A stretch of 64,000 bases of DNA from Botryllus schlosseri. Lineage: Eukaryota. Positions 10,240 through 58,562 of the stretch are shown in pieces (position 1 is the first letter of the stretch; each line of letters opens with the position of its first letter). Under the pieces are notes generated by a model. That model was not told the origin of the DNA. It made no database searches and was given only the letters and a program-made list of their open reading frames with translations. The translations under genes and the position numbers were made by a program. The DNA lies in contig CM119371.1 in assembly GCA_051294905.1 (NCBI GenBank), positions 32,490,001-32,554,000 on the forward strand, written 5' to 3'.

Positions 10240-10536
10240 GTCACCCTTGAAGTAACCCTATGCAGTATATGCTCTACCACATACTTTAATTCCTGATTGT
10301 TGATGCCAGTATGCATATTCATATGTCGCCTGAGGTTATTCTTCTGCGTGAATGCTATTCACTTTTTTTTGATGCCTGAATGCATATCCATATGAAGCTT
10401 GAGGTAGTGGCCACCCTTTATAGAAAATGCTTTCCCATACAGATTTCATTCATTTCATTCATCCCCGCATTTATTCTAATATGTCACCTAAGGTTTTTTT
10501 CTGAGTGAAGATTGTCCCACATACATCACGTTTATG
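10240..10536 (-). pseudogene. Degenerate C2H2 fingers downstream of the stop of ZNF array 1
   Basis: An in-frame TAA replaces a linker codon and is followed by HKRDVCGTIFTQ and frameshifted finger remnants. Its end is homologous to the end and 3' flank of the 33662 exon. Confidence 0.8.
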
Positions 10537-11739
10537 TTATTTGACGCGGGCATGCATATCCATATGTGACTTGAGGTGAGCCTTCCTAGCAAATGCCTTC
10601 CCACATACATAACATTTGTGGTTTTTGACGCCCGCGTGCATATCCATATGATGTCCAAGGTGATGCTTTCTAGTAAATGCTTTCCCACATACATCACACT
10701 CATGGTTTTTGACGCCGGCATGCATATTCATATGACGCTTGAGGTTGCATTTCCAAGTAAATGCTTTCCCACACACATCACATTTATAAATTTTAATTCC
10801 AGCATGCATATCCATATGAAGCTTGAGGTTACCATTTCCAGTAAATGCTTTCCCACATACATCACACTCATGATTTTTGATGCCAGCATGTATATTCATA
10901 TGATGGCTGATGGTATTCTTATCAAAGAATGCTTTCCCACATACATCACATTTTTGGTTTTTGACGCCGGCGTGCATATCCATATGAGGCTTTAGGGAAA
11001 GCTTCCAAGCGAATGCCTTCCCACATACGTCACATTCATATTTTTTGAAGCCTGCGTGCATATCCATATGATGCTTGAGATGATCCTTTCTAGTAAATGC
11101 TTTCCCACATACATCACACTCATGGTTTTTGATGCCAGCATGTATAACCATGTGTCGCCTTAGGCTACTTTTATCAGTAAATGCCTTCCCACATATATCA
11201 CATTTATGTTTTTGGACACCGGCATGCATATCCATATGACGCTTGAGGTCACGCTTTCGAATAAATGCTTTCCCACATACATCACATTCATGATTTTTGA
11301 TGCCAGCATGTATATTCATATGATGCCTGAGGGCACTTTTATAGGTAAATGCTCTCCCACATCGATTACACTCATGGTTTTTGATGCCAGCATGTATAAC
11401 CATGTGTCGCCGTAGGCTACTTTTATCTATAACTGCCTTCCCACATATGTCACATTTATGTTTTTTGACGTCGGCATGCATATCCATATGACGCTTCATG
11501 TCATATTTCCGAGTAAATGCTTTCCCACACACATCACATATATAAACTTTGATGCCAGCATGGATATCCATATGAAGCTTGAGGTCACCCTTTCGAGTAA
11601 ATGCCTTCCCACATACATCACTCTCATGACTTTTAATGCCAGCGTGCATATCCATATGAAGCTTGAGTTTACTCTGCCTAATAAATGGTTTACCACATAC
11701 ATCACATTCATGATTTTTGACGCCGGTGTGCATATCCAT
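10537..11739 (-). CDS. Tandem C2H2 zinc-finger array 1 (14 x 28-aa units, one with Cys->Ser); 5'-truncated, possibly a pseudogene
   Basis: 400-aa ORF of repeated C-x2-C-GKAF-x5-L-x2-H-x3-H units. The upstream in-frame sequence is a half finger (SGNFNIH) preceded by TGA at 11764-11766. Confidence 0.85.
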   Translation of the reverse strand: MDMHTGVKNHECDVCGKPFIRQSKLKLHMDMHAGIKSHESDVCGKAFTRKGDLKLHMDIHAGIKVYICDVCGKAFTRKYDMKRHMDMHADVKKHKCDICGKAVIDKSSLRRHMVIHAGIKNHECNRCGRAFTYKSALRHHMNIHAGIKNHECDVCGKAFIRKRDLKRHMDMHAGVQKHKCDICGKAFTDKSSLRRHMVIHAGIKNHECDVCGKAFTRKDHLKHHMDMHAGFKKYECDVCGKAFAWKLSLKPHMDMHAGVKNQKCDVCGKAFFDKNTISHHMNIHAGIKNHECDVCGKAFTGNGNLKLHMDMHAGIKIYKCDVCGKAFTWKCNLKRHMNMHAGVKNHECDVCGKAFTRKHHLGHHMDMHAGVKNHKCYVCGKAFARKAHLKSHMDMHARVK

Positions 11740-14700
11740 ATGAATGTTGAAGTTGCCCGAATATCATCAATACGATCATCAGTTCGATCACTTTTGATCA
11801 ATTCAAACTATAGTCAGCGAGTAACACTATGAAAAGAAAAAAAATTACTCATCAACTGGAAAAGAAACAAAAAGAAATGTGATAAACATGACACCCATAA
11901 CGTCTGTGCGATGGTCGGGAACGTATGGCTCGTAAGCTATATATGGCTCTTTTAATGACACGATTTGACCTCTCAGCGAACTCTTTATTGAAGTTCTCAG
12001 TCATACGAACATGATCCTTCCTGGAAAAGGCAAAGTCCATATAATTCAATCTAGACGCTGCGTGCAGTTAATTATCTGATTATTCACTATAGCGTCTAGC
12101 ACCATGCTTTCCCGGGAAAAATAATTATCACTGTAACGTGCATAGTTTCTGTCTTCCAATGAAAGAAAATCGTATCAAATACTTGCTTTTAATTTCAACC
12201 ATTGATTCCACATCTGTATGCCGCGGGACATTAGTACGTCCGCACAGATTCTAAAGTTTGCCGTGATTTTTGTTGTAATTTTGGAGAAAAATATATTAAA
12301 AACTTTTAAAATTAGGGAGGATTGCTAGCATGCGACTTGAAAACGCTCTAACCGCTTCATGGCTGATAAACAAGTACGTTATATTACAGTGGAATCTATC
12401 ATTGCATTGTCAATGGGTTTGGTATTGTTCACGTATTGTTGAAAACCTTTGATTGGTAGTTAGTTCACTTAGAAGCAGTGAATCAAGCAATCTTACTGCA
12501 TAATATGAGCTCATTCATTTGCTAAACGTCCCGTTTTTTAGAATGCTTTTTCACGAAAATGGATGAGTTATGTCTGTCACCCTCCAAATCGTTTACCTTG
12601 GCTGCAAACGCAATCAGAATTTCATTGCGATTTATATCTTCATGAATATGTGAACATTAGTTTTAGTCTTGGCTGAAATTTTAAAAATTGCACGGGAACT
12701 GCTTGGAATTGAGGAGGAAATGCGGGTATGTTGTTCGCATAAATAAGCGTAGCCATCGCATTACCAGGTATTTTTTCTACGAAAAGCAACATTCAGGTAA
12801 ATGTTTTATACTTCTTATAGTGGGCCAAACCACAAAAAGATTGGGAACCACTGATGTAAACCAAACAAAATCGCACTGTTGGCAGACAAATTGCGTGTGC
12901 TCTGGACACCAGCTCCATACATGCTAATGCAAACGGCGATATTTCAATAAAATTCACAATCCGATTTTGTAGATTAAGATATGAACAGATTTGAATATAA
13001 ATGTTCGAGTCAATTTCATTGTTGAAAGACTGGCACACTCTATGGGTTTTTAGTACCGACAACTGATGATGACATGACTCGAATTATGGCTTTACTCTAG
13101 TAACGTTTTCGGGATGACCTGATTTGGCTCATTACACTAAAATGAGTTGACCTGACTCGAATTTCGACGAATGCATATTATTGAAGGGGTCACGAATTGG
13201 GCGCAGATGTTAGAGTCATCTTTCAAGTCATGAGCTATAATAGTGCTTTTTAACCTGTGGATGACACTTGATGGCCTAAGCGATGGGGGGCCAACCTTTT
13301 ATCTATTCACGGCCACATTACAGGGCATAACCGTAATGAACGAGCTCGACGCCAAACACCCATGTTAAAGCGTATATGACCATTTCCGGTGAACTCCGGA
13401 CTAATCTATTTCACGATATAGGTTTACTTTACGCACCGAAATATCGAGTCGTCACTGGTTATGTTAAGGGCCAGTTTATAGTCGCACAACGCGCGAAAAC
13501 AATTTCAGATTCTACGATGAATTTCGTCATTTAATTGGCAGCTTTAGATATTACTATCAAACATTTACCCTTTCTCAGCCAAATTGATCAGAATAACCGG
13601 TAAATATTTGATGCAGGGATAGTTTTCGAAAATTAAGGGCAAGTTATACATTATGATGCATCTTTGGGTGGGCCAATTGCTATTAGTCACTTTGTTATAT
13701 GCTGCTATTTCATGACCTCCAATCAGGATTGTCGATTTAGTGAGGAGCACACGATTCCGAGTTGTTATTTCCCTATGAGGCGCATCATTTTCTTCTACTG
13801 TTCACGTCTGTATTGTGGGGGTCTGATTGCAACGGGCGCTACTTTTTTTTAAATCGAAAATGAAGTCACATCGAATCGCATGTAGAGCGAAAAAATATCA
13901 AGGTTTATTCAAATCTTTCAAGAAATCGGGAGTCAATTCGTTAAATTCGAATTGCATGTCGACGGCCGCCAACACATACTAATTGAATTACGTGTCCACT
14001 AGGGTTGTCCAAAATTTGGAAAATCTCAAAAAGTTTCCGTGATTGTGTCTCATTCTATAGATTATTGATAAAAAACAACAATTAGCCTGAAAGAAGCTTA
14101 CAGGAAAGCCGTTAAGATTTCGGTCAAAGCGTTTGAAAGTAGCTGCTCAAGAATGGGCGTGCCACTGCCCATAGAACGGCGAGAAGACTAGTAATCAAAT
14201 AACCACGGCTCTTGATTGGCTAATCGGCTATGCTTCAATGACCACGGCAGCAGCAGCTTGCTGATCAGGTGTTCAAGAAGTCTGCTACCGGCGGGGATTC
14301 TGAGTGCGCATTGTTAGTAGTTTGGCAGGTGATGATTTAAGATTAATTCAGGACATGTTGAGGTACGAAATACATGATGAAGAAACAACATCTGCTTCAC
14401 AGCACTTTTACAGCATGACTGCTTCATTGTGAAGGAAACGGCTGAAGCCTACATGTCGTGTTTTCATCGAGAGAAGGCAAAGGCGCTTATGCAAGTGTTG
14501 AGCGAATTCACCGTTTCAGTACGGATCCACCATCAGTGAATACAAATATAAAAAGCTAAACAATGACAATATACTAAAATGACTTGACCTGATTCTAATT
14601 TCGACGCATGCATATTACTGAATGAGTCACGACTTGGGCGTAAATCATATATAGTCATCAACTATAATGCTTCGAAAAACCTATTGATCAACAGGCCTGC

Positions 14701-16221: not shown

Positions 16222-17941
16222 AGTTAGACAATAATTGTCATTTTTAACACATACGAAATCAGGCTTAATCGTATATTATATTCGAATAAATTTCATAGTC
16301 GAAATGCTGGTATACTCTGAACTTTTTGACTAGGGACAACTGATATTACATAATTGTCGATATACAATGATCTTTTCAATTATCTATTAGTTGCTGGATA
16401 TAAGCCCCTGACGAGTGTAACCCGAATATATTCAGGTTAATATCAATATGAATATACTAGACAGTGGTATATTCTAGGTTTATGATAATTTTGTAGTTCA
16501 GACAAAATAGGCATGCTGAGTCGTACGTATCGCGGTCCAATTAGCGCATTTTCTCGGTGCCATAGACGAGATTCCATATACGAGATTCCATAATTGTGAT
16601 TGCGCTATTTTCCCAACGCAAAATAAACCTCATACCAAATTATCTGGAAAGCTGGATGAGCCTGACTGATACTGACTATGATATTCCCATGATACTCACG
16701 TAACCTACCGATATCGCTGCTGATACCGTCAATTAGTTCACTAAACACATGGCCTGTTTTTGCATTGATTTTGCAAGTGCCCCGACGCTGCACGAAACAG
16801 ACTGAAGCTGGATGTAACATAATGTAAAAACCCATGCATGGACCGCGTGAACTCGCGAGCTGCGCGTATATTGCTATGAAAATGCTGATGAAACAATGAT
16901 CAGACGATTCTTATCAGAGTAAAATTTCTACATTGGTTTGTGCCTGTAACTGTTCGAATTTACTGGTATTCCGAAGTATATGACCGGAGAAGCATGTTAA
17001 AATCAGAGATGTCCTCGGGAATTTGTCCCGCTTGCCTCTAAAGTTACATTGCTAGTGATATATGCGCGCTTCTCGTAAATGCTATTCTAGAAATACGTCA
17101 ATTTCAAAGTTAAATATGCATGCAAAAAGCCATTGTACCGCTCAGACATATGTAGAACAGCTAAACCACGAAAGTAGCTATATAGCCTCAAGCTATAATT
17201 ATAATTATCAGCCAAAATAGAGAATACGAAACCTAAAAAATTAGAAATTAATTGATGTAATGCAATACGCTGCCCAAGTAGGTTACATATCTATGAGATA
17301 CAAGTCAAGCCTGCGGCAATGGTTGACGGGTAATATATACTTATACACGATATTCAAAATATATTCAAATCAAACCAGAGGTCTAGGGGAGAATCGAGCA
17401 CTATCAGCAGTCTATAGAACAGACATGGCCGACGCCCAACTGCCCATTTCTATAAATCATGCGTATTTTTTGTTGGGAACGGGTACCCAATAATCAGATA
17501 TCAGACAATTATAAAAAATTCCTGAAAAATTTCAAAAAAATACACCATAATTTATGTTAATTGTCGAAATAATTTTGGACCCCCTTCGAGCTCGGCCCCT
17601 CCAATTGGGAGGTTTTGGTGCGAAAGTTACGGTCCTGAGTAAATCTTACGCAATGTTCATGCCACGCGGAGAAGACTATTCGTTAGTTTCTCGGAGATTA
17701 ACTTCGAGCTAGTCCAATATTATTTATAACTTACCATGTTATTTCGCCATTCCCAGAAAATAATGCGCTATTGAAATGATATCAGTATCGCTCACGCGTA
17801 CGAGGCCATACTAAAAAAATATCTTCCGTGAGGCGCACGTGATTGTGAATTCTTATTTCTTCACGGAGCGTAATAGTTACCTTTGTGGAGCACACTTATA
17901 CCTCGATTTCAGACTTCAGTGATAACACTATTTGGCCCTGA

Positions 17942-18121
17942 CAATGTTCCATCTTAATTTTCACGAATCTGCGCGCCTGCGTGATCCATTGAACAACAGT
18001 GCGCAACAACTTAAAATAAAACATCATTTCTGATTTTTGGTGCGCAGCGTAGATTTTCTGTGCGCAGACACCGTTTCAACAATGCGCATTTGCGCACGTG
18101 CGCAGCTTAGAGGGAACATTG
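17942..18121. mobile_element. Short MITE (CAATGTTCCCTCTAA family)
   Basis: Ends are CAATGTTCC and GGGAACATTG. Related copies or ends lie at 42835, 47702 and 49831-50011. Confidence 0.7.
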
Positions 18122-19711
18122 GACTTGACCCTCAAGCAATGTAAAAATAGTATTTCAACAAATACGAATCCAGGCTGCACCGTAAATTAAATTCGACTAG
18201 ATTTCATAGTCAAAATGCTGGTAGGCTATATGATCCTTTCCAATGTAGAATATACTGCAGATCGAGCTATGTGGAAAGCTGGGTGAGCCTGACTAATGCT
18301 GACTATGAGCTTCTCATAATACTCACGGTCATATAGCCTACCGATATTGTCGCTAATACCGTTAACATGCATGGCGAGCTTTTTCATCGATTTTGCAAGT
18401 CCCGCGACGATGCCTGAAACAGACTGAAGCCGGATGTAATTTAATGCTAAACCCGCACGCACGAATCACGTGAACGCGCTGCGCGTATACTATACAGCTG
18501 TGAAAATGCTGATGCATTAATGGCCAGTTCACTGAACAATGAATGCTCTTAATAGTGATATACGTGTGGCGATCAACCATTTTCGAAGTATTCTTTTTAT
18601 ATTGTGCTGTGCCTACGGTTGCAACTTACTTTTATTCCTAAGTATTTGAACAGAGAATCATATTAAAATCATAAATGTACTTTAGACTTTGTCCTGATTG
18701 CCTTTAAATTAATATTGCAAACAGTATATATATATAAATACATTAGCATAAACATTAAATATCGCGCCGTGTTCACTTGACATATTAAACCACATGATAC
18801 AACATGCACTCATTGGTTGCTAATTCTGCTGTTCTAAAATTACAATCAGTTATCATATAGCGTTTCAGATTCGTACTTTGCCGTACATTAAGCAATGATT
18901 GGAGATATTGGGCTACCAACATTGTCCACACAAAAGGGAATCAGTAGATACAATCTTATGTAGGGGAGACCGGGGACAATTGTAACACTTTTCGTATTTT
19001 CCAACATTACGTGTTTTTCTCGTGGAAATTTCACTTCCAAAGTTTTTTATAAAGAAGCCAACAACTCGATAGTTGATATGAAAACTAAATTGGAACTCAA
19101 TCAACAATAAATCATAAAAATTTTGGGTCGCAAAACTCGTTGCTCAAATGTTACAATCGCCCCGTATCCAGGGGCAATTGTACCACCCTTGCGGGGCAAT
19201 TGTAACAGTGTTATTTATAACTAAACACAAACTAAATGAACAACGAAAACGGAAGCACAAATTGTAATATTGCATGGAACTAAAGGAAGAGACGTTTGAA
19301 CGCTTCTAGGCTAAGCCCCATCGCATTTATGGCATCTGAATGCAATATCACCCTTCGTGTCTTGTTCAAGCTTAAAGTGTACAAGAGACTCATTCATTCC
19401 ATCATCTCCCTACACATATTCGACCTCTTTTACCAAGGTTCTGTTGTTCAGCGGGCATAATGGGTTGGTCATTCGGTCACCTGCGAAGGTGCGAAACCGA
19501 CCTGGCTAACATATCTTGGTTGAATGGGCCGATGATAGTATAGTAAAACGAGGACGCAACATTGTGTGGCGTCAAAGCTATAATGACATTTATCTGTGCT
19601 GTAGAAAATTAACATAAATTGTTCACATCAAATATCAAAATGTAAGTGGGCCATGATCAAAGTCAGAGGACGAGAATTAAGCCATGACTATTGAAGTTCG
19701 ACACACCAAAA

Positions 19712-19952
19712 TGTTATGTTCGTGCATTTACGTTTTAGTGTCGTACAACTCTTTCTTTCTATAGGATTAGTAATTACAGCCAATCATTCTTTCCTCGTGT
19801 GTCGTGCTTGTATTTATACCCTGTGTTCTGTTGTCTCCTCGTCTTTCATTTAACTGAACTCTGGATCGTGTTACTCTGCTGTTAATATACTGATTTCTTA
19901 TTGCAACCTCGTCGTATTGAGTTATTGATCAAACAAGATCAAGAACATAACA
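19712..19952 (+). mobile_element. Single LTR of an LTR retrotransposon (probably Gypsy-type)
   Basis: 241 bp with TG...CA termini and a 10-bp inverted repeat TGTTATGTTC / GAACATAACA. Contains a TATA-like TATTTATA. Followed after 2 nt by a tRNA-Leu primer-binding sequence. Absent from MITE copy 1. Confidence 0.85.
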
Positions 19953-19954
19953 AT

Positions 19955-19996
19955 TGGTGTCAGAAGTAGGATTCGAACCCACGCCTCCATTCGGAG
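19955..19996 (-). other. 42-nt copy of the 3' end of mature tRNA-Leu (CCA, acceptor 3' strand, T arm, long variable arm); extended PBS
   Basis: The reverse complement CTCCGAATGGAGGCGTGGGTTCGAATCCTACTTCTGACACCA resembles the 3' half of animal tRNA-Leu(CAA) plus CCA. No D arm or anticodon arm is present, so it is not a tRNA gene. Confidence 0.88.
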
Positions 19997-20749
19997 GTCG
20001 ATCAATATGAGAAAGGGTGGTTGAATCACGAAAATAACCGACCCGTCAGATTCACATCACCACTATTGTATGGCCGTTTCGACAGATGATCATGTTAGAA
20101 TTGGTATCGCAAGGCAGTATCTGTTCTGGTGAACTTCTGGCTGTTGCAAGATTATTCTGCTGTAGATGAATGGTAATACCAACATATGAACAAAGACATT
20201 CAGAATTGATAACATATTGTAACGGGGCAAAAGTAACAGAGTGTTACGATTGCCCCTGACACGCTCGACCATGATTAGTGTCTCAGTATGGTACCTTCCC
20301 GGCGATGCAAGTCCTATTCTTTCCATCACCACGGTAGACTATAGTAACATTGTTCCAGCTACACATATTACGTTGTAACTACTTGAGGTACTATTCGTCT
20401 AGACAAATTATTCCAGACCAGAAAAACTTTACTCAAGGGTCAAAAATTTCGTTTTTTGCAAATTATTCCGGGGTTACGCATCGTAGCTCAACGTAACTCC
20501 AGATATAATAGGAGAGATAACTACTGCATGCACACTTGAAATATCAAGCTGATTTCTCCATCCTACTAGCGGTGAGGTCGATTGTTACATTTGCCCCTAG
20601 TTACATTTGTCCCCGGTCTCCCCTAAATGATAATTGAGCCGACAATACCCTGATCTCCATCATAACAGTTTCAAAGCAATATTTATAGAATGTACAATGT
20701 ACACCATGGATAGAACTGTCTCAATGATTTTATATCATCGCATGTCATA

Positions 20750-22050
20750 GGAAGGTATTTGAAAGCCAATTTCGTCTATTAGAAACTCCTTTATACCAGT
20801 ATTCAAACGAACGTCTTAGCAGTGAATTTCGTCATCCACAGCCGGCGACTTCCACGCCATAACCGAGTCTGCAAAAAGTAGCTAGTATGGGAAACCTAAT
20901 ACATGCTCAAACTTGGTCAGTATCAGAACGCAGAAATGCAGTAAATACACAATGTAACAGTGCTTTTAACCTTTTTGGATACCGATTCGCCTTTTTTTTG
21001 AAATTGAAATTCGTTCGCTCAAAACAATCAAAAATTGTTATAGTTTGCATGATGTCTAGGGAAATAAGCTCCAACACGATAATGGAGAATAGGCACATTA
21101 GAGCTCGCTACCTTATGATACACATCTCAGACTTGCGTTCTGTTTTTATATTTCGATTTCCCATTTCCTGTCTCGCGAGTTAATGGAAAGAGCAAAGATC
21201 TCTCACTCGAAACTTAATAACAGTTCGAAAACCTTCAATAACCAACAACCAGCCTCTTGAACCACGAAAAAAATCAGAGATTTTGTGGCATCTCGCCGAG
21301 CCTCACACCTGAACAATATGGCAATTGTAATATTACAGTTGCATGCCACGATTTTAAGGACACGCATGACATAAACTACCGAACTTGCAGAACACAATTG
21401 TACGCAACACGAAACCTGTCTGACGCACGTGATTTCAAATAGGAGTGATTTAAATTCCCCTGCTCGTTGTATTTGTACTACTGTCCACTCAGATTGCAAG
21501 AACAGGACTTTTCAGTGCCAACTGCCGACAACAGAGCGTATCGATTTGGAAAGGCTTGGCCGCGTTTGGCACCGCATTTTATCAGCGGTATGTTGGCCAA
21601 ACTTTACATCTTCAGGTGCCCCGACAATCCGACATAGAAGGGTTTGGCTTCGAAATGAATGTGTCTCGCGCTCGTTGCACACCCCTACAGTAGTTCATCT
21701 CAACGGTCTTCGACCAAGTCTTTCAGAAAACCAGTCGTACGAATCCTATCATGAATTCATGACAAAGGTCGCAGATTCTCATGAACAAGCCATATTTTTG
21801 CGTGTCTCGATTATTGGATATAGTATGCAACAACAGTGACCCTGGATATGTAAAAATCATCGCCGGATTTTTTGCAATAAATTCAACAAATACTACATAC
21901 ATATCAATAGATAGTTCTGGTAACGTGTCGACCTATCATCATATATTCTTTGCGGCCAATACTTTAATAACCCTTGAAGGGGTGAGAATTTGCGCTGCAG
22001 CAAACTGCAAATGTGAGTCTGTAATGTTGGTACTAATCAATGAGCTCTTA
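20750..22050 (-). pseudogene. Decayed Buster/Charlie-like hAT transposase
   Basis: Minus-strand remnants LAI*VDSSTN (cf. FALQLDESTD) near 21500 and LFRCEAR (cf. LLFHTEVRWLSRG) near 21300. Homologous to the LINE-interrupted copy at 51300-53270 and, inverted, to 55480-56400. Confidence 0.55.
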
Positions 22051-23126
22051 CAATGTTGTGCAACGTTATTCTACTCAGCTAGATTGACAGTCATATATAC
22101 AACAATTTCATGGGGTTGGCAGCAGTGGCGAAGCAGCAGGTGCTGCCGCCCATGGCTTTTGTTGAAAATGCCGCCCCATAAGCCCACCGCAGCAAATTTC
22201 GACATAGTTTCAAGCACTATTTTCAATAAAAATATTTACAAATAATATGCCGCGTATCAGAAGCTCTATATTGCTTGAGAAAGAAGCCCATCTCCGCGTT
22301 TATAAGGCCAAAAACAATAATGACAAGAAATGGAGAACGAATGTATTAGTCCAGGGGCGGCCAACCCGTCACCCGCGAGAAGATTTTGAGTGGCTGGCGA
22401 AATAATTCGCGAAATTAACTGTAATATTAAATAATAAATATTCCATGTAATTTAGTACTCTTATATATATCTTCTGCTATAGGTGCAACAAAGTATGTAA
22501 TTTACTGTGAATTTGCAAGGTCCACCAAAAGTTTGATAAGCTTTACCGCGAAATTTGGGTTGGTAATGACTTGAGCATCATTTCCGACGCAATGGCGTAG
22601 CCAGGGGCCAGCCAGATTTTTCATAAGATCTTCGTATATGATCGTAAAGTAGAATATTTCGTGGTAGATTTATTTGACTCGATATTTTTATAAGCACTTA
22701 GCGCGATTTATTGTCACTCAAATTCTTGCTTATAGTACTCCCTCCTTAAAATTCACCGAATTGAGTCTGACAATACTCGCAATTATGAGAGAACGTGTCG
22801 TCCAACATCCGATTTCGCATCTGCATTTGTAGAAAGATGATACGTGATGATGAAACATTCGTACAAAATTAGACGCCTCTACGCCGGAATCTACGATATT
22901 TATATGCCTAAGCGCCGAATATTCCTGTCTTGTCAAATGAGCCCAGCGGCATACAAAGGCGACCCGCAATATATGCAAGTGGCATAGGTATTGGCCGAAC
23001 TCATTCATTATAACTTAGAAAAATGTTAGCGCTTGGCGCGGTTAGTTCACGAGCGCACTATGCACGCTGACTTTTCACGACATAATTGTTATCGATTTTG
23101 ATGCCTAGTAATATACGTCTTGTTTC

Positions 23127-23684: not shown

Positions 23685-23848
23685 CTAGTTTCCGTATAGT
23701 CCGGCTCGCTCCAATCGAACGACTCAAGAAAGGTCATGAAAATTCAACATCCAAGTGGCCTGCTCAATGATTCCCAAATCTCATGTGGCCCTTTGACCGA
23801 AAAGGTTGGCGCCATGTATTGGACAAATAAAAAAAATCAATAGCCGCC

Positions 23849-24060: not shown

Positions 24061-24234
24061 AATGGTGTCGAATCAAGTACGCGTGATCTAACTAACCACC
24101 GTAAAACATCGAACGCTGTTGCATTACGATCAAAAGTGGTTTCACTGCTCCGCACCAGCCTCTTAAATATGTCAATTTCTTCATCTAACTCTAATTTAAC
24201 AATAGAATACTGTTTTTAACAGAAGTCTATTGTT

Positions 24235-25615: not shown

Positions 25616-25891
25616 GTTTGTTTGTTTTTGGGGTATTCATGGTGTTTGTCGACTACTATGGTCATTTACACCAGGCCGATATTCTTCTTAATATCCGTAA
25701 CTGCCGACTTATAGCACGGCCCACCTCTAGGCTTTTGTAAGACACCGCTGACGCGGATGAGGTGGCGAGGAGGAGCCTAGGTAAACCTCCAACACTTAGG
25801 TATCGGAATTCGGAAGTCGACCTCGGTCGGACTCGAACCCGCACCCATTGGTGTTGCAGCCGCGGATTATACCACTGCGCTATCTCGCCAC
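25616..25891 (-). mobile_element. Full-length tRNA-derived SINE
   Basis: A box TAGCGCAGTGG, B box GGTTCGAGTCC and (CAAA)n tail. 13-bp TSD GTGAACATCGTTT (25603-25615 / 25892-25904). Confidence 0.92.
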
Positions 25892-26596
25892 GTGAACATC
25901 GTTTCTATAGACAGCCTAACACTTTCATGGGGTGAACAGAAATTTTCAAATGTTTTGGTATTTACTTGTATATAGTAAATAGAAACTTTCTTCTCTTGTA
26001 GCAATGTGTCTACTGGTTGGAATTGAGCCAAAGTTGGTGTGTAGGCTTGCATTGGGTACGGTTCTCAACATTAAATGACTTGGGAACCCCTGTGGCCGAG
26101 CTGGGCAATTATTTTTCTGAGAATAACAAGCAGAAATACGTTGAAGGATAAGTCAAAAGTTGGCACTATATGTAGTGTATGAATTCTAAAATGATGTTAG
26201 TCTGAGTTTTAGTTCTAGTAGCGGATTTTGAAAAGTGAGTAGTTCTAGTTTAAGTTGCGGATTTTAAGAAGTTGTTAGTTCTAGTTTTAGTTTTAGTTAT
26301 CGTTCCGGGATTGAAAAATAATGAGTAGCTCTAGTTCTAGTTCTAGTTCTAGTTGTCCTTTTTGCATATCGAGTAGTTTGTATAAGTCTGAGCATGAGTC
26401 AGGGTTGTATCCAAATCACAAGGCTTCGAGTCACAAGTAAATCTCATTGATACAGTGTTGAATCGCGTCATTTTCAATTCGACACCGAGTCAAGTCAGGG
26501 TGCAGAGGGTCAAGTCCGAGTCATAGTCTTATGATTCGAGTCCGAGTCTGTGTCATTGTGTTGACTGCTCAGTTTCCTGTTGAAGTCTTGTTATAC

Positions 26597-26879
26597 TAGG
26601 GTTACCATACGTCCTCTTTAAAGAAGATTTGTCCTCTATTTTGAATTTTTTGAAAGTGTCCTCGGAGGACGCCCTTTTGTCCTTTTTTTGAGTCAACCAC
26701 CTGACAATGTGGAGGAAAATCTGTATTTTGGGCGTTGAGCGAGTAAGTTGACTTTTTTTGGTCAACCGACCTCAAAGTAGAAAAAATTTGCCATTTTTTG
26801 AGAATTCACCTCCGGATTTGCAAGTCTGAAAATTCTGAATAAGTGTCCTTTTCAGATTTTCAAAAATGTTGTAACGCTA
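26597..26879. mobile_element. hAT MITE (TAGGGTTACCA end)
   Basis: Perfect TSD TGTTATAC (26589-26596 / 26880-26887) and imperfect TIR. Confidence 0.82.
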
Positions 26880-27570
26880 TGTTATACCCATTTTATTATA
26901 ACACTGTTTGGTGATATCGAATGGTTCGCATTTATTAAATACTAATTTTCCTCAATTTTGGCCGTTTCTGCTCGCATTTTCAAGTACCAAACCAATAGAT
27001 GAAATCCCGACAGTATGGTCACTTCACTATTTTTCGAAATTGCAATGAAATGACGGTCTTGGTCGCAGGGTTGTAATGACTCGAGTCAGACTCGAGTCAC
27101 GATTTTTTTATGACTCGACTTGACTCGAGTCAATTTCTTGAAATGGGAAAATGACTCGACTCGACTCGAGTCAATATTTGGATTGACTCGACTTGTACTC
27201 GAGTCATTACGCATGACTCGACCCAAGTCATTGACTCGGCTTATTTTATATGACTTGAAGATGAAGAAATTTGCGAATCATAATGGCTATAGATCAACGC
27301 ATCCGACGAATTCTGCCGACATCGCTATTTGTCACCACTGCTTTCTTCGCACTTGTCTCATATCAGATATGCCGCCGTAAAAACAACAGAAAATGTACAT
27401 AGTAGCAATGCATTGTACAAAATCGTCCAGTGATGAAGAGGTAATAGATCCTCCGCAATTAAAGTACTCAAGACTTTTCAATTATACAAGCAAGCAATTG
27501 AATCAAAATTCAATTAGAGCCAATGAAATGACTCAGATGGTGAAGAGATGATAAGCTCATGTGTAGATTT

Positions 27571-27792
27571 GAAGGCGATGATTCTTTGCATTTTTGGGCG
27601 ACTAGAAAGAATGAGTATTGAATGATATTCAGTGTGGTTCAAAAATGCTTGTCAATTCCTGCATCAAGTTCTAGTGCACTAGTGGAACGTGTATTCAGTA
27701 TATGTGGATTCATTTTATGGCCATGCCGCTTTAACATATTTGAGGATCTCCTTTCCACATTAGTATTTTTGAGGTGTAACTCATTGATTTGA
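27571..27792 (+). pseudogene. hAT (Ac/ZBED-type) transposase dimerisation-domain remnant
   Basis: Translates as EGDDSLHFWATRKNEY*MIFSVVQKCLSIPASSSSALVERVFSICGFILWPCRFNIFEDLLSTLVFLRCNSLI*. Confidence 0.85.
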
Positions 27793-27902
27793 TCTGCTGT
27801 CTGTGAAAACACACAATGCCCCTCGTCCATTTGACGTTTTGTTAGGTATGTGCATTGTGCACGTGAGTAATAATGAATGGCTAATGTTATGTGAAGTTTG
27901 TA

Positions 27903-28392
27903 CAATATGGCTGTTCTAAAATAACTTCTTTTTTTATTTTACTGGGTGGTTACTTGATAAAATTGTTATGTTGCATAGAAGGAACACTGAATCTGGCTTA
28001 ATTTGAAAAAAGTGGAATCAATGATGTAAGAGGAGAATATTTTGGATTTGAAAATAAATGGAGTATTTTAGTGAGAAATTCTTTCATATAATATAATACA
28101 TAGTAGTAAGCCGACTATTTTTTCATATCCAAAACATTCTAATCTAATAACTTCACTTTTTCTAGTTGGAATGGAGTCAAATTTGCTATGAATCATATTT
28201 TTACACAATGTAGCAATATCATGAGATAGCCGGTAAAATTCGAAAATATCTATTTGAAATTAGTCTAAAATTTTCTTTCATAGCATTGCTTTCTACTGGT
28301 TGGAATTGAGCCAAATTTGATTTTTTAGGCAATCTAGCAATTTTAAGAAGTAGCCGGAATATTTGAAAAAATGTTTTTGAACAGCCCCATTG
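27903..28392. mobile_element. Foldback-like MITE with TA TSD
   Basis: TA|CAATATGGCTGTTC ... GAACAGCCCCATTG|TA with long imperfect arms. Related to the palindromic element at ~25165-26050 and the half copy at 40890-41185. Confidence 0.65.
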
Positions 28393-30202
28393 TACAATTA
28401 TTTCTGCAATGCTGTAACTGCGATGTAGTCTGTAATGCACTTTAGTATAATCAAAAGGTATCTGTTCTGTTGTCACTGCACAATGTACATAGTTGCATGC
28501 ACGCTTTTACAGCATGCTGGCCTGTTGCAAATACCTCTACATAAACATGCATCTATTGATTCTCTATCAACTATAGTATCTTGACGTGAATTTGTTGGTT
28601 CTCTATCAGATAGTATGTAGACGTGAATTCGTTGGCTCTCTATCAGCTATTCGTGAGCTATCGTCGATGTGCTCATAATAAAAACTGAATGCTTGTATTG
28701 GTGATGTATCAGACTGACAAGAGAGATATTTGATTTTAAGGTCTAAGATTAGTAAAGTTATCTTTAGCATCGGTAAATGAGGCCAGGACCCGTCCGTTAT
28801 CTGCCTAAATAAACACTTGTCAAGACTCTGATAGGGGCAAAATGAGCATGTTTCGCAAACAAGGAATTCGATATCACCCAAGCAGGATTGAAAACATGAG
28901 TTGAACATGACTTCAATACTGTGACTTGGACTCGACTCGAGTCATAACACCATGACTCGGACTTGACCCCTTAAACGGTGACTTGGACTCGGACTCGAGT
29001 CTGTGATGAATTGAAAATGACTCGACTCGAGTCAATACCACAAAAGTATGATTGACCCGTGACTCGGAACCATGTGACTTGGTTACAACCCTGCTTGGTC
29101 GGTAGAGTCTCGATTCATATGACTCGGTTCGAGTCATGAACCGTATTTTGAGAAAATGACCCGAGTCGAGTCATCAGAAAGTTGTGACTGGAGTCGGATT
29201 CGAGTCATTATAGAACCCTTGTATGAACCCGTGCTCGATGGTTGTTATAGCAACCAGGGTTGAAATGACTCGAGTAAAGACTCGACTGGAGTCGAGTCAT
29301 GTTTTCAAAATACGGAAATGACTCGACTCGAGTCAATCTGTGTATTGACTCCACTTGGACTTCATTTCGCATGACTCGAGCCAAGTCATATGACTTGAGA
29401 ATCAGACGACCAAGACCGACATTTCATTGTAATTTCGAAGAATAGTAAAGTCACCGCACTATTGGGATTTCATCTATTGGTACTGGTACTTGAAAATGCG
29501 ACCAAAAACTGTTCGAAGTGTGAAAAGTTAGTATGTTATAAATGCGAACCGGAATCGCCTATGCGTAACAAAAACAAATTTCTTTAGTGAGGAACACTGA
29601 CTCCCAAGTTTTATTTCTTTGTGGAGCTCATCATTTTCTTCTGCTGTTCGCATATGTACTGTGAAGCTAAAATTGATCGAATGAAGTCTTATTGAATCAC
29701 GCAGGGCGCGAAGAAAATTTCGAGATTACTGAATCTCTTAAAGAATTTAGGAGTAAAATCGTGAAGCCCATTTGCAGGTCCACTGCCGTCAACACATAGT
29801 AATTGAATCACATGTCAACGGCCGTATAAATTTACTTCTACGGACGCAGGTTGGCCACCCCTTGCAATATAGGGATAGCATATTTTGAGACCCAAAATCA
29901 GGCACTCATTACAAATTCGAAATTTATTATATTGGACGCGAATACGGGTAATTTGAAAACCTATATAGGAAATCCTGTTATGTTGCCCTAAAAAAGTTAT
30001 GTTGACATCTCCACTCCTGCAAAACCATCGAAGTAGCTCGCAACTCGTAAGTTTAAACAAACTTCGCTAAGTTGCGACCGTACGAGTTCATGACCTTCAG
30101 CAGTAGAATAAATGCAAAGTCGTATTTCTTTGTAGCTGCATAGTCGTAACGGTAATTTGGATGAAATTTTATTGTTATTGACGGCTTACCAGCAAAAAGG
30201 TT

Positions 30203-30208
30203 GAGAGA

Positions 30209-30240
<32 letters not shown>
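30203..30240. repeat. (GA)n microsatellite
   Basis: Visible dinucleotide run; a longer paralogous run is at 58512-58562. Confidence 0.95.
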
Positions 30241-30551
30241 ACCATAGCCATAGATGTCAATAGTTTCTCAGTGCTTAGTGCTCAGAATTTCACATCCCTT
30301 GGTGGATTTGAGGGGATTTCGGTATTCTGGCATAGTCAATATTTGGACTTACGGAATCAGTGCGTCGATAGCATTTGATTGATGCTAGTTATTATAAATT
30401 ATCAGCTGTCCATGATGAATTACATTATCGAGGTGAGGCACGACTGGCAATTATCTTATACTTGTCCAGACGACAGGTGAGGTATTGCCTCACTCCCCTT
30501 CCTGACTGCACGTCACTGAAATGATCCCTCCGCAGTACCATGCTTATTGCT

Positions 30552-32351
30552 TAGGGCCGTAACAGTACGTCGTCAGCCCCCCTCAAAACGGTGGTTTCGG
30601 GCCCCCATACGATGATATACCAAACTGCTGGGGTGCTTCTCCCCCCAGACCCCTCAGGCTGCACGCTGTTTACCGCTACTTGTAATCTACATTGGAGGCC
30701 GTTTACTGAAGCAGCATTTCTGGCGTTAATGCGCGAAGCGCGAAAGATTTCTATTATTCATGAATGAATCGGTCAATAAGATCGGGAGTTGCATGTATAT
30801 TGTTATTGCAATCAATTTCTTGTCCTCTCTGCTCACGTAATCAGATTTACCGGTAGAGCTGACTGAGGTGTCTTGGATAGGCTACTGTATGGCCCGTTGG
30901 TATGACTCCGTAGCATGATGTTATTTCATGACCTCCTGTCTGCTATATCAACAAAAAAAAAAGAATCGCCCAAACGTAGGCTATTAAACTAAAAGACGCA
31001 CACGATTTTAAATTGGTATTTCTTCACTGGCATATAATTTTTCCCTGCGTGATGGTATATGTCTTGTGAGGTTCAGATTGCCGAGACAAGAACATTCGGC
31101 AGCCGTCATTTAGGCGCCTATGGACAATTAAACCTGTATGTGCATATGTGCATATAACGAAGTTTTCGGTCAGCACAAGGGCAGTCCTTTTCGGCCAAGG
31201 TTTTCTCGCTGCCGATCGTTCTGGCACACTTCTTGGAGTCGCATGTTACATGGCTTAAAACACTGGTTCTCAATTTTTTGTCTTCGCGGACCCCTTTTGG
31301 ACCACCACGGACCCCGCAGACCCCCTCAAGTTTTCGTTCAAAATTAGCTCGATTATCGCGCAACCGCCATCTGTCTCGTGCAGATACTGATTGTAGGCTA
31401 TTGATAAACAGCAACAAAATGGCTTTTCTTGAAAATAGCATCACAGTATATGTAAAAAATGGGTAGACTTTTATTATATAGTAACGAATTTTGCAGCTGT
31501 ATTTATTGTCTTGAAAATCCGTCACTTCGATTGGATACGAACGAGTGCCAAAAATCCATTTTCACACATATATATTGGTGGCGAATGTAATATTAACGCG
31601 TAACGCTTTCGACGACAGATTTTTGTTGTGAGTTTTTAATAAAAAGTTCACGTCCAGCCTAGTCGTTTCTATCTATGATCTCACCTTGAAGTTATTTAGT
31701 GGTTATATCACAGGAGTAAATGGATTTCTTGGAGAGGTTTCAATTCCTTCATTGGGACAGATTAGGAAAAAAAATAAGGAATTTATATTTAAACGACTGT
31801 TTGATAATTTGCTGAGACTGACAACTCCAAATCAAAAGTGCTACCTCTAACATTTCATTTTTCCACAGACCCCAACAAAACATCTCTAAACAGTAGGATG
31901 TGTCATCTCAGACGACCATTTTAATGATGTGAGTCCTAAAGTTTGAGCAATTATGAAGCGAACCCGTCATGCCTTTCCCAATTAAAAAAAGGTTATCAAT
32001 CACGTTACAAATTTAGAGGTTTCGCGGACCCCTGAAAATGCTTCGCGGACCCCCGGTTGAGAACCACTGACCTAAAATTTTATATGTGTTGGTGCATCGT
32101 GGCGCGGTAATGGCCAACGCCGAAATGCCCATTTTTATAAATCTTGCGTGTTTTTTCTTTAGGGAAGGTAACCAAAAATCAAGATATTTGGCAACTTAAA
32201 ATCGCGCCCAGCGCAAAATGTTTTTGAAATAGTTTCATAAATATTTTAAAAAAACTCTATAATTTATGCTAATTCACTAAATAATTTTGGGCCCCTGTCG
32301 AGCTCGCACCCTCCAAATTGGGGGGTTTGGAGTGCGACAGTTAAGGTCCTG
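30552..32351. mobile_element. CAGGACCGTAAC-family hAT element containing a nested MITE
   Basis: Right end GTTAAGGTCCTG is followed by CTTATATA. Paralog of 58884-62666, where the TSD is perfect. Confidence 0.75.
31261..32069. mobile_element. hAT MITE (CA(C/G)TGGTTCTCAA ends)
   Basis: TSD GCTTAAAA / ACCTAAAA. Paralog at 61615-62435; related sequence at ~270-1030. Confidence 0.8.
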
Positions 32352-32842
32352 CTTATATAATAATGGATATTAATATTAATAATTAATAATGCATATATAT
32401 TAATGCATAGGGCATATACCGTAAGTCAATCCACACTAGTTTCAATGTGGAACAGACGGTTTGGCAAACGGGTCCACGAAAAGTATTTTGTCTTTGAAAC
32501 CGCTCCGCAGAGCTAAAATGGTTGCCGACCCCTTCCTTAATACACACTTTATAGGGTTGTGTTCTGTGCATCCTTCAACTATTTGAAATCTTTTTATATC
32601 TGAAAACTCCTCAAAATATCAATGACTTTAGACAGACACACATTGAGCAAGCACGTGCATTGCAGTTTTGCACCAAAGCCACCCATGGTATGTATAATTT
32701 TGCTATGTCTTAAATTGGAACTTCTATGAGTACGTTTCTGTGACTTCATTCTACGCTCAGCTCAGATAAGTGTTCTTGAGATGGTCTATCCACAATGTCT
32801 GAATCTCAAAAACTTCAGATATTCAATACTAAACCAGCTAAT

Positions 32843-33286
32843 CAGTGGTTCCCAACTGGGGGGGGGGTTGATATTATTAGGGGGGAATCTGACTTTGGCG
32901 TAGTATCGGAAGATACACTGGGTTCACATGGTTTATAGATTATTGTAGTATTGAACTGTAGAAATTATTTCTTTACAATTGTACCTTTCTTTGGCCGATT
33001 TTAAGCTAGGTGGCGGATTTCACTGTCTTCCGTAGATAATACACCCCCTGATAAAGTGAGGCTCTCGAGGGTCAAATTTAACTGTACTTTACCGAAGTGT
33101 AGTACGGTCCCCAATCGACAGGAATCGGACATAACTGAATATGTTTGGTCATTAATTGCTCAGTCAACAAGTGGCTGGGCGTTAAAAAGCACCTTTTTTA
33201 GTCACAGGCAAATTTTTCATAGGGGGGAATTTTTGCTTAAATATCGGCCATTGGGGCCACGAGACGAAAAAGGTTGGGAACCACTG
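32843..33286. mobile_element. hAT MITE (CAGTGGTTCCCAAC family) in the 3' flank of ZNF array 2
   Basis: 14-bp TIR. Right TSD is AGCTAACA; the left copy is degenerate (AGCTAAT). Confidence 0.85.
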
Positions 33287-33661
33287 AGCTAACAGAATAC
33301 ATATCTGTAAAAGTATCAGTAATAATCACCCACGTTACAAGAACTGCAGCAGAGACTTTATTAAGCGTCTAACCGTCGAAGCGGCTAGATGCGAAAGACA
33401 CAGGAACAACACAAGACATCACTACTATAACCGGGAGCGGTATAGAGCACGGCTGCCACATATCGACTGCAATTGTACATGTGAATATCCCTATGCATTT
33501 TATGAAACGTCCATGAATTTACGTCAGGAAATATTGGAGAATAAAATCGAATAATTGGACGGAGATGAAAAAAAACTTTTTTCAGATACTTGAATGTAAT
33601 ACATGTTAATGACTTCACCCCTGGAGTAACCCTTCGCAGTATATGCTGTCCCCCATGCATT

Positions 33662-34858
33662 TCATCCATGATTGTTGCTGCCAGTATGCACATTCATATG
33701 TCGCTGGAGGTTATTCTTCTGAGTAAACGCTCTCCCACATAAATCACATTTATGATTTTTGATGCCACCATGTATATACATATGAAGCTTGAGGAGACCC
33801 TTCTGAGAAAATGCTTTACCACAAACATCACATTCATGTTTTTTGACACCAGCATGCATATCCATATGTTTCCTGAGATTATTTTTTTGAGTAAATGCCT
33901 TCCCACATACATCACACCCATGATTTTTGATGCCAGTATGCACATTCATATGTCGCTGGAGGTTATTCTTCTGAGTAAACGCTCTCCCACATAAATCACA
34001 TTTATGATTTTTGATGCCACCATGTATATACATATGAAGCTTGAGGAGACCCTTCCGAGTAAATGCTTTCCCACATACATCACATCCATGGTCTTTGATG
34101 CCAGTATGGATATTCATATGTTGCCTGAGTGCATGTTTATAAGTAAATGCCTTTCCACATATATCACATTTATGTTTTTTGATGCCAGCGTGCATCTTCA
34201 TATGAACCCCGAGGCTCTTCATCTGGGCTAATGTCTTCCCACATACATCACATTTAATACCTTTTCTGCCAATATGCGTTTTCATATGACAATTGCGATC
34301 AATCTTCCTAATGAATGCTTTCCCACATATCTCACATTGATGTTTTTTGACGTCATCATGAGTATTCATATGAAGTTTAAGGCAACGGTTACTAGTAAAT
34401 GCTTTATCACATACATCACATTTACGATTTTTGATGCCGGAATGCATCGCCATATGACTATTGAGGTCATTCTTCCTCAAAAATGGTTTACCACAAACAT
34501 CACATTCATGATTTTTGACACCAGCATGCATATCCATATGATGGTTGAGGTGGGCCTTCTGAGTAAATGCTCTCCCACATACATCACATTCATGTCTTTT
34601 GACGTCAGCGTGCATATCCATATGAGACTTGAGGTAGCTCTTCAGATGAAACGATTTCCCACATATAGCACATTCAAGACTTTTGATACCAACATGCATA
34701 TTCATATGTCGCTTGAGGTCACCCTTCATAGTAAATGTTCTCCCACATACATCACATATATGAGTTTTGGTGTAGACGTTTCGAGAGAATTCTTTTTTGG
34801 CAACATCGCATGGATGATCTTTCAAGTCGTGATGAATAGATAATTTTTCTGACTCCAT
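33662..34858 (-). CDS. Tandem C2H2 zinc-finger array 2 (13 fingers); first in-frame ATG at 34858, true 5' structure uncertain
   Basis: Lies within the 422-aa ORF 33662-34930, which opens on TTG. Contains 13 C-x2-C...H-x3-H units with all zinc ligands intact. The stop TGA sits at the first-Cys position of a degenerate 14th finger. An in-frame TGA lies upstream at 34961-34963. Confidence 0.88.
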   Translation of the reverse strand: MESEKLSIHHDLKDHPCDVAKKEFSRNVYTKTHICDVCGRTFTMKGDLKRHMNMHVGIKSLECAICGKSFHLKSYLKSHMDMHADVKRHECDVCGRAFTQKAHLNHHMDMHAGVKNHECDVCGKPFLRKNDLNSHMAMHSGIKNRKCDVCDKAFTSNRCLKLHMNTHDDVKKHQCEICGKAFIRKIDRNCHMKTHIGRKGIKCDVCGKTLAQMKSLGVHMKMHAGIKKHKCDICGKAFTYKHALRQHMNIHTGIKDHGCDVCGKAFTRKGLLKLHMYIHGGIKNHKCDLCGRAFTQKNNLQRHMNVHTGIKNHGCDVCGKAFTQKNNLRKHMDMHAGVKKHECDVCGKAFSQKGLLKLHMYIHGGIKNHKCDLCGRAFTQKNNLQRHMNVHTGSNNHG

Positions 34859-37614
34859 GTCGCTCTTTATATGGAAATGACAATGGTGTTTATTTCTTAC
34901 AGTGGTAATAATATCTGTTTTCAAGTTCAAAGTGGTTATTACATATTTTCCACAATTTCTTCAGTGTATATACCGGTAAGTAGTTCTATGACGGCATGGC
35001 ACGGTCTGATAATTATGAAACTATGAAAGTGTCGAACTGTTGACGTTTTTCGACGTTAAAAAACCTAATTTTGAAAAAATGTTGCCCTAATGTATATAAA
35101 TTATGAGTTTTCACGCATAATGCTAGAATTGTACTACTCATCTTCATTTCTGGCTGGAACTGTCTGTCCTCACATCACGAAGTATGGTACAAATACAATT
35201 AAAATGTATTGTAGTACAACGGAAGATACTTTCCTACATTCTCGGGTAGAAAGTGTCTGTCCTTTGTAAGTAGCTTGCCAAGAGTGGAGAAAAAACGTTA
35301 AACAGCAGCAGTTGTGCGTACACTGCTGGTGAAAATCCGTGTTGCTTCAATGTTGTCTACATCAGTGGTTCTCAACCTCCCCTCCCGCGGACCGGCAAAA
35401 TTTCAAAAGATATGTGGCGGACCGGTGAACCTTGAAAATTGAAATCAACCCCAAATGTAATGTATGCAGCTGTTTTCCTGCAAGTATGGTACTGGAGCAG
35501 GCGTGGTCAACCTTTTTGCTATTCACGGCCACATTTCGATCACTTATACGGCCTACGGCCGCATACCAGGACACACAGTCGTGATGAACTACCTAGACGC
35601 GAAATACCCATGTCCATTACTGGTGAACTCCGGACTAATCGACTTTATGATATCGTCTTACCCTACGCGGGGAAATCACTATATAGTGCCCACGTTATGA
35701 ATAGTTACTATAGGAACAATGATCTTGGCGCCCAACGTGAAAATTCTATTCTATTCTCCAACGAATTTCATCATTAACACTGGTCGTCTCTCGTATTACC
35801 ATTTATCCTTTCTCAGCCAATGCGATCAGATTCATCGGTAGAGTTGATGTAGGGAGTGTTTTCGAAAATTTTGGCAATTTATGAATGTTGATGAATCTTC
35901 GGGTGAGCCGATTGTTACTGTAGTCACTTTGTTGCGTGTTGTTATTCCTTGACCTCCCATCAGGATTGTCGGTATAGTGGAAAGAGATTGGAATCTACCA
36001 AACGTACCAGAAACAAATTTCTTTCGCGAGGAGCGTAGACCTATAGTTCCTAGATGGTGTTTCTATATCGCAGTGGTCGGGAACCTATGGCTATTTTGGT
36101 CTAAGATATGGCTCTTTGGGAAATTTTTAATTTTTTGCCTAATTTATCAATATTGCAGCAACTTGTTAGTAAATTTTCATGACGGCCAGAATATTATTCT
36201 CGTGGCAGCATAAGAACGTATTTGATAGGTCAAGACAGTGCGGGATATCCACTATCCAAGGTTAGGGGCTCGTACCGCCCTCTTTTCAAAATCCCCAAAT
36301 ATAAGTTGCTGTCACGCCGGCGACTAACACCACTCGCGAGTTCGATCAACCTGCCATCGCGAGCTTCGAAACCTTGGATTGCACGATACCTTGGTAGATT
36401 AAAGAGAATAGCAGACGTGGCCACGCTTGTAGAACAATGCAGTTTTCAAATACACGTTGTCTTCCTGATCCACGCCGACAAATAAACTGCCTTGGAAGTG
36501 ACATTCATAATTACAAATTCAACTTAAAAACAACGCAATAGCTATCCATGTTCTTGACGTATGTGGCCAGAAAAATATGGCGCATATTACGAATCCCACA
36601 TATTAGTGCAGGGGTGGCCAACCTGCAGCCGTAGCAGGGAATTTGTGCGGCCGTCGATACGTAATTCAATTAGTATGTGTTGGCGGCCGTCGACATGCAA
36701 AATGAAATTACGAATTCACTCTCGAATTTTTGAGAGATTTCAATGAATCTTGAAATTTTCTTCGCGCTAGCCGCGATTCAATGCGACTTCTTTTCTCGAT
36801 TTTAATATAGTAGGACACTTTTCAATCTGTGCCGGATTCGAAATTGTGTGCTCCTCACGAAAATAAATTGTTTATGGTACATTTGGGCGATTCCAATATG
36901 TTTCCACTATACCGACAATCCTGATGAGGGGCCAAGAAATAACAGCATGCAACAAAGTTACTAACAGCAATTTGCCCACCGAAGATGCATTATCATTTTT
37001 ATCTTAGCCTAAATTTTCAAAAGCATTCCTTCCCTCTATCAACTCTACCAGTGAATCTGATCACATGGGCTGATAAAGTATAAATATTTGATAGCATTAT
37101 GTGATACTGCTACTATTAATGACGGAATCGATCGGTGATCTGAAAAGTTTTCATGCTTTGCGCGACTATATCCAAACCCAGTGACTATCCATAACATTAC
37201 CACTCACGATTGCGGTGCGTATAACAGGTCGATATGAAAAGTAGAATAGTCCGAAGTTCAACAGAAATAAACATGGACAGTTTAAGATAGGCATTTTGCG
37301 TCCAGTTAGTTCATTGCGGCTATGCCCTGGAATGCGGCCGTAGGCTACATATGTAATCGAAATTCGCCCGTGGTTAGCAAAAAGGTTGCCCACCTCCATA
37401 GTAGTTCTACTATCGACAATGTCATACTCTAAAGCAGTGCTCTTCAACCGGGGTGGTCGTACACCCTAGGGTGTACCAGAATTTGCAAAGGGTGTACCAC
37501 TCGGATGGGGTGTACAGGGGTGTACCAGATCCGAATTACAATGAGCCGATGGCTAGCTATCACAAAGGCAGGTTTATGGGTCAGGACAGGTTGACGCACA
37601 GGTTAATGAGCATG

Positions 37615-58508: not shown

Positions 58509-58511
<3 letters not shown>

Positions 58512-58562
<51 letters not shown>
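58512..58562. repeat. (GA)n microsatellite
   Basis: Visible dinucleotide run. Confidence 0.95.

Follow-up and report, generated by a model that had tools for sequence, protein, structure and literature searches.

What do two arrays of C2H2 zinc fingers do in a repeat-filled segment of the genome of the tunicate Botryllus schlosseri, and why do their DNA-contact residues change so quickly? The window, i.e. the whole stretch of 64,000 nucleotides analysed here (assembly GCA_051294905.1, contig CM119371.1, positions 32,490,001 to 32,554,000 of the forward strand), harbours two such arrays, called A and B below; all coordinates are those of the window. The original prediction was that they represent a lineage-specific zinc-finger cluster engaged in birth-and-death evolution against transposons. 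Our analyses indicate, with moderately good support, that A and B exemplify something already known, lineage-specific poly-zinc-finger expansion.

Array architecture, scaffold and linker

A six-frame scan of the window yielded a pair of C2H2 arrays that lie on the minus strand. Paralog A (10537..11763) is a stop-to-stop frame of 408 codons that starts with half a finger followed by 14 C2H2 units. Its earliest in-frame ATG, at 11739, gives a protein of 400 residues, and its stop codon sits in the linker 3' of unit 14. Paralog B (33662..34960) is a frame of 432 codons with 13 intact fingers and an ATG at 34858, giving 398 residues. The two predicted paralogous arrays of 14 and 13 units are thus present, with all units intact in B and 13 of 14 in A, where unit 2 has Ser in place of Cys1. 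In addition, unit 4 of A has a Phe-to-Val change, and unit 9 has a Pro at helix position +6. The lost zinc ligand of unit 2 lies at 11640-11628 and the unit with the helix Pro at 11040-10957, both on the minus strand; some A fingers may be inactive spacers. The mid-finger start of A, and frameshifted fingers that run on 3' of its stop, are features that the original prediction did not mention.

Both arrays score far over the cut-offs of the Pfam models zf-C2H2 and zf-H2C2_2. They have an exact 84-bp period, i.e. the 28-residue period of canonical linker spacing, and neither contains an indel. Each gene has 13 intact tandem fingers in one frame, where at least five define a poly-zinc-finger array. 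The A and B proteins are 55-57% identical, and the nucleotide difference between fingers has a median of 22/84 nt over the 27 fingers. Units 12-13 of B are a recent duplicate of units 9-10, with 5 and 2 nt differences.

We compared the scaffold and the contact residues with those of 111 database arrays of at least eight fingers. The description of the scaffold as nearly invariant proved overstated: outside the contact positions, the fingers are on average 71% identical to one another in A and 60% in B, against a database median of 59%, and the values of A and B are reached by 12 and 55 of the 111 arrays, respectively. All six recognition helices quoted previously (RQSKLKL, DKSSLRR, WKLSLKP, QKAHLNH, SNRCLKL and QKNNLQR) were found in the arrays. 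The helices do differ at nearly every finger, being distinct in 13 of 14 in A and 12 of 13 in B, but this is ordinary for such arrays. Contact-site identity is 0.17 in A and 0.13 in B, close to the database median of 0.17, so that helix differences between adjacent fingers are the norm. The share of diversity located at contact sites, 0.27-0.33 for the two arrays, is unusually high in A (0.327, reached by two of the 111 arrays), and the value of B is reached by 33 of them. A and B were also said to share few recognition patterns; indeed, no contact quartet is common to both.

The claim of a non-canonical linker holds for its sequence but not for its geometry. None of the 27 post-finger pentapeptides of A and B is the Kruppel-type TGEKP, but the canonical length, Gly2 and Lys4 are kept. 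The linker Gly caps the helix and the Lys contacts the DNA backbone, according to a report in which TGEKP is said to predict DNA binding (PMC11327367). The consensus is A-G-[IV]-K-[NK], with Ala1 in 18 of the 27 pentapeptides, Thr1 in 3, Ser1 in 1, Gly2 in 23, Ile or Val3 in 24, Lys4 in 25 and Pro5 in none. Among the database hits, 637 of 1168 linkers correspond to [TS]GE[KR]P and 76 to xG[IV]Kx. The residue preceding the first Cys is His instead of Tyr or Phe in 20 of 27 units, compared with 198 of 1174 in the database hits. Two C2H2 arrays found in the searches, P0244 and P0247, have x-G-[IL]-K-[ND]-H-x-C linkers devoid of proline, and the linker type of A and B is hence not unique. Unlike A and B, these arrays have H-X4-H fingers, their identity is 36-40% across the matched stretch, and the resemblance of the linkers is probably convergent. 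The AG[IV]K[NK] linker is a family signature and no new architecture.

Selection at the DNA-contact positions

We analysed the 27 fingers with a partitioned codon model in which the contact positions -1, 2, 3 and 6 were fixed beforehand. Fingers were compared with one another rather than as parts of aligned young genes, and branch lengths were scaled from a nucleotide tree of poor resolution. The ratio of non-synonymous to synonymous substitution rates (dN/dS) is about 3.1 (3.09) at the contact sites, and 2.9-3.4 across six settings of tree and frequencies, against 0.02 at the zinc ligands and ~0.57 at the remaining sites. With a contact-specific dS the contact-site ratio is 2.4 (p=0.01), and with a helix-wide dS it is 2.5 (p=5e-4). 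For B alone, the helix-wide dS gives 6.6 at the contact sites, and the non-contact sites of B have a dN/dS near 1.

The four contact positions are the four fastest of the 24 non-zinc sites, which ranks them first among 10626 four-site sets, and the interleaved helix positions +1 and +4 are slow. We ran 42 simulations in which the contact sites evolve neutrally, 28 of which include gene conversion. All fell short of the observed value: the maximum was 2.41, with a likelihood-ratio test (LRT) statistic of 16.6, vs the observed 3.09 and LRT of 33.5. Thus, the proposed check of dN/dS at helix positions -1, 2, 3 and 6 against the scaffold revealed a non-synonymous excess (2.4-3.4) that is weak in A and absent in the youngest finger pairs. 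The contact-site selection signal is real and comes mostly from older branches.

Gene ends, duplication and transcription

All 17 listed AG sites upstream of A (11790-12020) have five to nine in-frame stops between them and finger 1, so that no in-frame upstream exon can precede the first finger of A. This leaves three options for A: a fingers-only protein that starts at the ATG at 11739, a gene spliced into the array itself or a truncated copy. Beyond its stop lie ~3.5 decayed finger units (10246..10536, minus strand) with seven indels in ~310 nt, six of which are not multiples of three; they are now probably the 3' untranslated region (UTR) of A. The 14-unit array has no indel, which argues that the frame of A was maintained after the stop arose. 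The 3' flank of A (9941..10249, minus strand) is homologous to positions 33326-33623 of the 3' flank of B (71%), with more blocks at 9822-9901 and 9276-9412. The B flank (33326..33661, minus strand) is a probable 3' UTR with a candidate AATAAA near 33360 and a depth of 29 at 33440 in the RNA run X7. Homologous non-coding flanks had been claimed for both genes; this is correct for the 3' flanks (65-77%) but not for the DNA immediately 5' of A and B, shared repeats aside.

The fingers of B are preceded by an open stretch (34763..34960, minus strand) with an alignment score of 61, against a maximum of 50 in 200 shuffles. A phmmer search with 34739-34960 gave nine matches, eight C2H2 arrays and one unrelated-looking repeat protein. 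From its sequence, this stretch probably comprises some three degenerate fingers rather than an effector domain. B has weak candidate acceptors, of which the one at 34914 would be in frame and would allow an upstream exon, and none of the 15 joints listed among the 1201 splice joints of reads on 32400-52399 leads to B. As previously remarked, no effector domain is visible: no Pfam effector family, be it KRAB, FiNZ, ZAD, SCAN or BTB, was detected in 157 of the 168 window frames of at least 70 residues, the 11 others overlapping the arrays in other frames or duplicating scanned frames. Neither a SET domain nor a KRAB domain gave a match in the scanned frames, and a self-tblastx comparison revealed no convincing coding exon common to the duplicated blocks.

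A segmental duplication (17638..32856) that takes in the downstream flank of B is collinear with a second copy at 49554..63178, with 7.3 kb aligned at 86.6%; within it, 61096-63178 matches 30731-32856 at 87%. Weaker blocks pair 12965-17360 with 46294-48958. By these alignments, A and B are paralogs in a tandem segmental duplication, and the position of the second block copy predicts a third zinc-finger paralog just past 64000. The window is as dense in repeats as described, since 64% of it matches elsewhere in the window and 33% has at least two alignments, figures that include the segmental duplication and the arrays. This local repeat density is no evidence of transposon targeting.

Among the repeats, a miniature inverted-repeat transposable element (MITE) with terminal inverted repeats and a near-8-bp target duplication lies in the 3' flank of B (32843..33286); we take it to be hAT-like. 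Positions 32843 and 63165 are the same site of two paralogous 3' flanks, and the MITEs found there have equal termini and different interiors. A TA-flanked non-autonomous DNA element with terminal inverted repeats (18961..20624), presumably Tc1/mariner-like, is absent from the paralogous block and has a copy at 7233-8610 that is 97% identical. Six diverged copies of a ~150 bp motif (at 12965, 16246, 18153, 42428, 46294 and 50083) are located inside the duplicated blocks in the same orientation, with 55% mean column identity. We considered this motif as a hidden exon and rejected it, as the alignment shows no common open frame. A 162-codon frame on the plus strand (51617-52105) has no Pfam match and is absent from the paralogous block near 21136; in our view it resembles the C-terminal end of a CR1/L2-type reverse transcriptase of long interspersed elements. 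Finally, an element on the plus strand (43482-43736) looks like a short interspersed element (SINE), with what we take to be tRNA-type A and B boxes. It has no Rfam or tRNA match, scans of both kinds having found nothing in the window. Both raw-read runs show an RNA depth of >1100 in its bin, and thousands of reads with a template-switch adapter at 43482 point to a defined transcript start of this SINE-like repeat family.

We searched for proteins of near, shorter and longer length, the near and longer searches scoring only the top ~8000 candidates, and the best 120 listed for each search were all generic zinc-finger proteins. The best identities among the matches listed are 48%, 51% and 43%, vs 55-57% between A and B. 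An Atlas search gave only generic C2H2 clusters, and a family-specific DNA motif had no match in metagenome contigs. A and B are thus tandem recent paralogs without close relatives in the databases, which fits the lineage specificity initially proposed, although these databases may lack related species of the host.

Reads were mapped to 32400-52399, a segment that covers B but not A. The summed contig depth of the B array in X4 is 6600-7600, vs ~100 on apparently single-copy contigs (66-76x); this hints at tens of close relatives of B, although depth is not a copy number. In the RNA runs X7 and X11, whose tissue is not stated, depth in the bin of the B array is 4.3 and 1.0, respectively, and the two bins least covered by X4 have 0.3-0.6 and 0-0.2. 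Run X1, in which repeats are deeply covered and a contig looks unspliced, was not counted as expression. All three X7 reads at 34296 share a variant with a 97%-identical X4 contig, which indicates low-level transcription of B or of a copy very close to it. Transposon-targeting zinc fingers are typically expressed in the early embryo or the germline. The variants at 34296 and 34210, from other individuals or close paralogs, alter finger B6 at helix position +4 and finger B7 at +5, respectively.

Possible targets and relation to known expansions

We propose that A and B belong to a lineage-specific poly-C2H2 family selected for new targets, most likely repeats. We give this proposal as a whole an even chance of being correct; its family and selection steps are highly probable, and repeats are slightly favoured as the targets. 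The genes have multiplied via segmental duplication, with internal duplication adding fingers and stops or truncation removing them. The zinc ligands are conserved, and the four base-reading positions change at ~2.5-3 times the synonymous rate. Because the linker keeps the helix-capping Gly and the backbone-binding Lys, each array would wrap the major groove like standard fingers. Selection would favour new target sequences, and the moving target would most likely be repetitive DNA, i.e. MITEs, other transposons or satellites. As no effector domain is visible, binding may silence or stabilise the repeats by occlusion or via a partner protein. The data support the birth-and-death evolution initially envisaged as well as a non-synonymous excess at the contact residues. 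The same pattern is known from vertebrate expansions (PMC2604467), and a link to transposons has been argued across metazoans (Wells et al., bioRxiv 10.1101/2022.11.29.518450), which also speaks for this proposal.

Several observations weigh against it. The Pfam scan of 157 of the 168 frames of at least 70 residues detected no effector family, and the linkers are devoid of the Thr, Glu and Pro of TGEKP, which is said to predict DNA binding (PMC11327367). RNA depth at B is low and, relative to X4 depth, no higher than in the two low-copy bins. Under the null, the selection test gives inflated values (median 1.2-1.4, with 7 of 42 simulations nominally significant), and the nominal p-values are hence too small. 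In the six youngest finger pairs, the proportion of non-synonymous differences at contact sites, 0.125, is not above the synonymous proportion of 0.125-0.16. A alone, with a helix-wide dS, has a ratio of 1.48 that is not significant (p=0.25), and when the four contact sites are tested one by one, +6 alone passes. The finger tree has poor resolution, and the comparison rests on fingers, not on aligned young genes.

The arrays might instead belong to fast-evolving but ordinary transcription or chromatin factors that target host regulatory DNA or general heterochromatin, as do Drosophila ZAD-zinc fingers, with transposons merely supplying the homology that drives duplication. Wells et al. themselves name repeat-rich DNA promoting gene duplication as an alternative, and they report that about one-third of KRAB zinc fingers have targets other than transposons and that Drosophila shows no transposon preference (bioRxiv 10.1101/2022.11.29.518450). 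Our locus is a repeat-filled segmental duplication, and no repressor domain was seen in the scanned frames. However, the fly and mosquito expansions are described as devoid of positive selection (PMC2604467), in contrast with the finger-level selection detected here, and we regard host targets as possible rather than probable. It is also conceivable, but unlikely, that the tandem 84-bp units turn over in a mostly neutral way, by gene conversion and unequal crossing-over, and that the helices are under relaxed constraint, A being a truncated pseudogene and the apparent selection a modelling artefact. The youngest pairs without contact excess, the inflated test, the mid-finger start of A with its Cys-to-Ser, Phe-to-Val and helix Pro changes, the near-neutral non-contact sites of B and the low expression would all agree with such turnover. 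It is harder to reconcile with a dN/dS of 0.02 at the zinc ligands, with arrays free of indels next to a tail of A that has seven, with the exact coincidence of the four fastest sites and the contact positions or with the failure of all 42 simulations to reach the observed value.

Fingers of the TFIIIA type whose linkers are non-canonical can bind RNA or protein, and A and B might do likewise, the highly covered SINE-like transcript nearby (43482-43736) being one candidate ligand. The absence of TGEKP, said to predict DNA binding (PMC11327367), is in line with this idea. Nevertheless, the linker length, Gly2 and Lys4 are retained and variation occurs at DNA-contact positions; we consider RNA or protein binding very improbable. 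Moreover, by the recognition code, we take the helices RKRDLKR and QKNNLQR to be like standard DNA-reading helices. Least credible of all is a PRDM9-like recombination-targeting gene with SET-domain exons outside the window. The tandem 84-bp units and the concentration of change at contact residues are reminiscent of such a gene, and the 5' end of B leaves room for further exons. However, PRDM9 finger units are near-identical, whereas those of A and B differ by a median of 22/84 nt; the contact share of diversity is 0.27-0.33, no SET domain was matched and the genes are multi-copy. The combination of a PR/SET domain with near-identical repeats that characterizes PRDM9 was not found.

A bolder version of the repeat-targeting proposal is that an effector-less, fingers-only family tracks non-autonomous DNA transposons and stays bound to them in mitosis. 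The TOPK/PBK switch is reported to remove C2H2 proteins from mitotic chromatin (PMC4359306). With the linker Thr largely replaced (3 Thr and 1 Ser in 27), the A and B proteins might escape this switch, and the retained protein might block transposase access or bookmark repeats without a KRAB-type corepressor. We consider this version unlikely.

A and B work like the cyprinid FiNZ and tetrapod KRAB expansions, yet they fit neither class, as no accessory domain was found and the linkers are not TGEKP. As described by Wells et al. (bioRxiv 10.1101/2022.11.29.518450), FiNZ genes are, like A and B, lineage-restricted, clustered tandem C2H2 genes with a single array exon and positive selection at contact residues. 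In A and B, by contrast, no N-terminal accessory domain was found in the scanned frames, and the linker is a different one. Tetrapod KRAB zinc fingers share with A and B the tandem clusters, birth and death, contact selection and the 28-residue period (PMC2604467). In contrast with them, A and B have no KRAB match in the scanned frames, AG[IV]K[NK] in place of TGEKP and mostly His before the first Cys (20/27). Emerson and Thomas (2009) reported selection at positions -1, 3 and 6 in vertebrate expansions and none in fly or mosquito (PMC2604467).

The idea of a zinc-finger response to transposons is already in the literature and not new: Wells et al. argue that zinc fingers and transposons coevolve throughout the Metazoa, with octopus, sea urchin and weevil among the animals named, and anticipate dozens of families yet to be characterised. 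By their account, predicted motifs agreed with measured ones in only 5% of cases. Tunicates, Ciona and ascidians are absent from their main text, although the supplements may hold tunicate counts (bioRxiv 10.1101/2022.11.29.518450). In a survey of Styela clava, the number of C2H2 genes was the most variable transcription-factor count among tunicates (PMC8122590). This fits lineage-specific expansions, and the survey as we cite it provides counts only, with no linker, selection or transposon data. Our literature search found no paper on the A/B family and no selection analysis of tunicate poly-zinc-finger clusters.

As they stand, A and B add one further case to a pattern known across animals. 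They occur in the sister group of vertebrates, and contact-site selection without a visible effector would make this family a system for asking if an accessory domain is required to target transposons. The family would also allow one to ask whether loss of the linker Thr alters the mitotic behaviour of these proteins.

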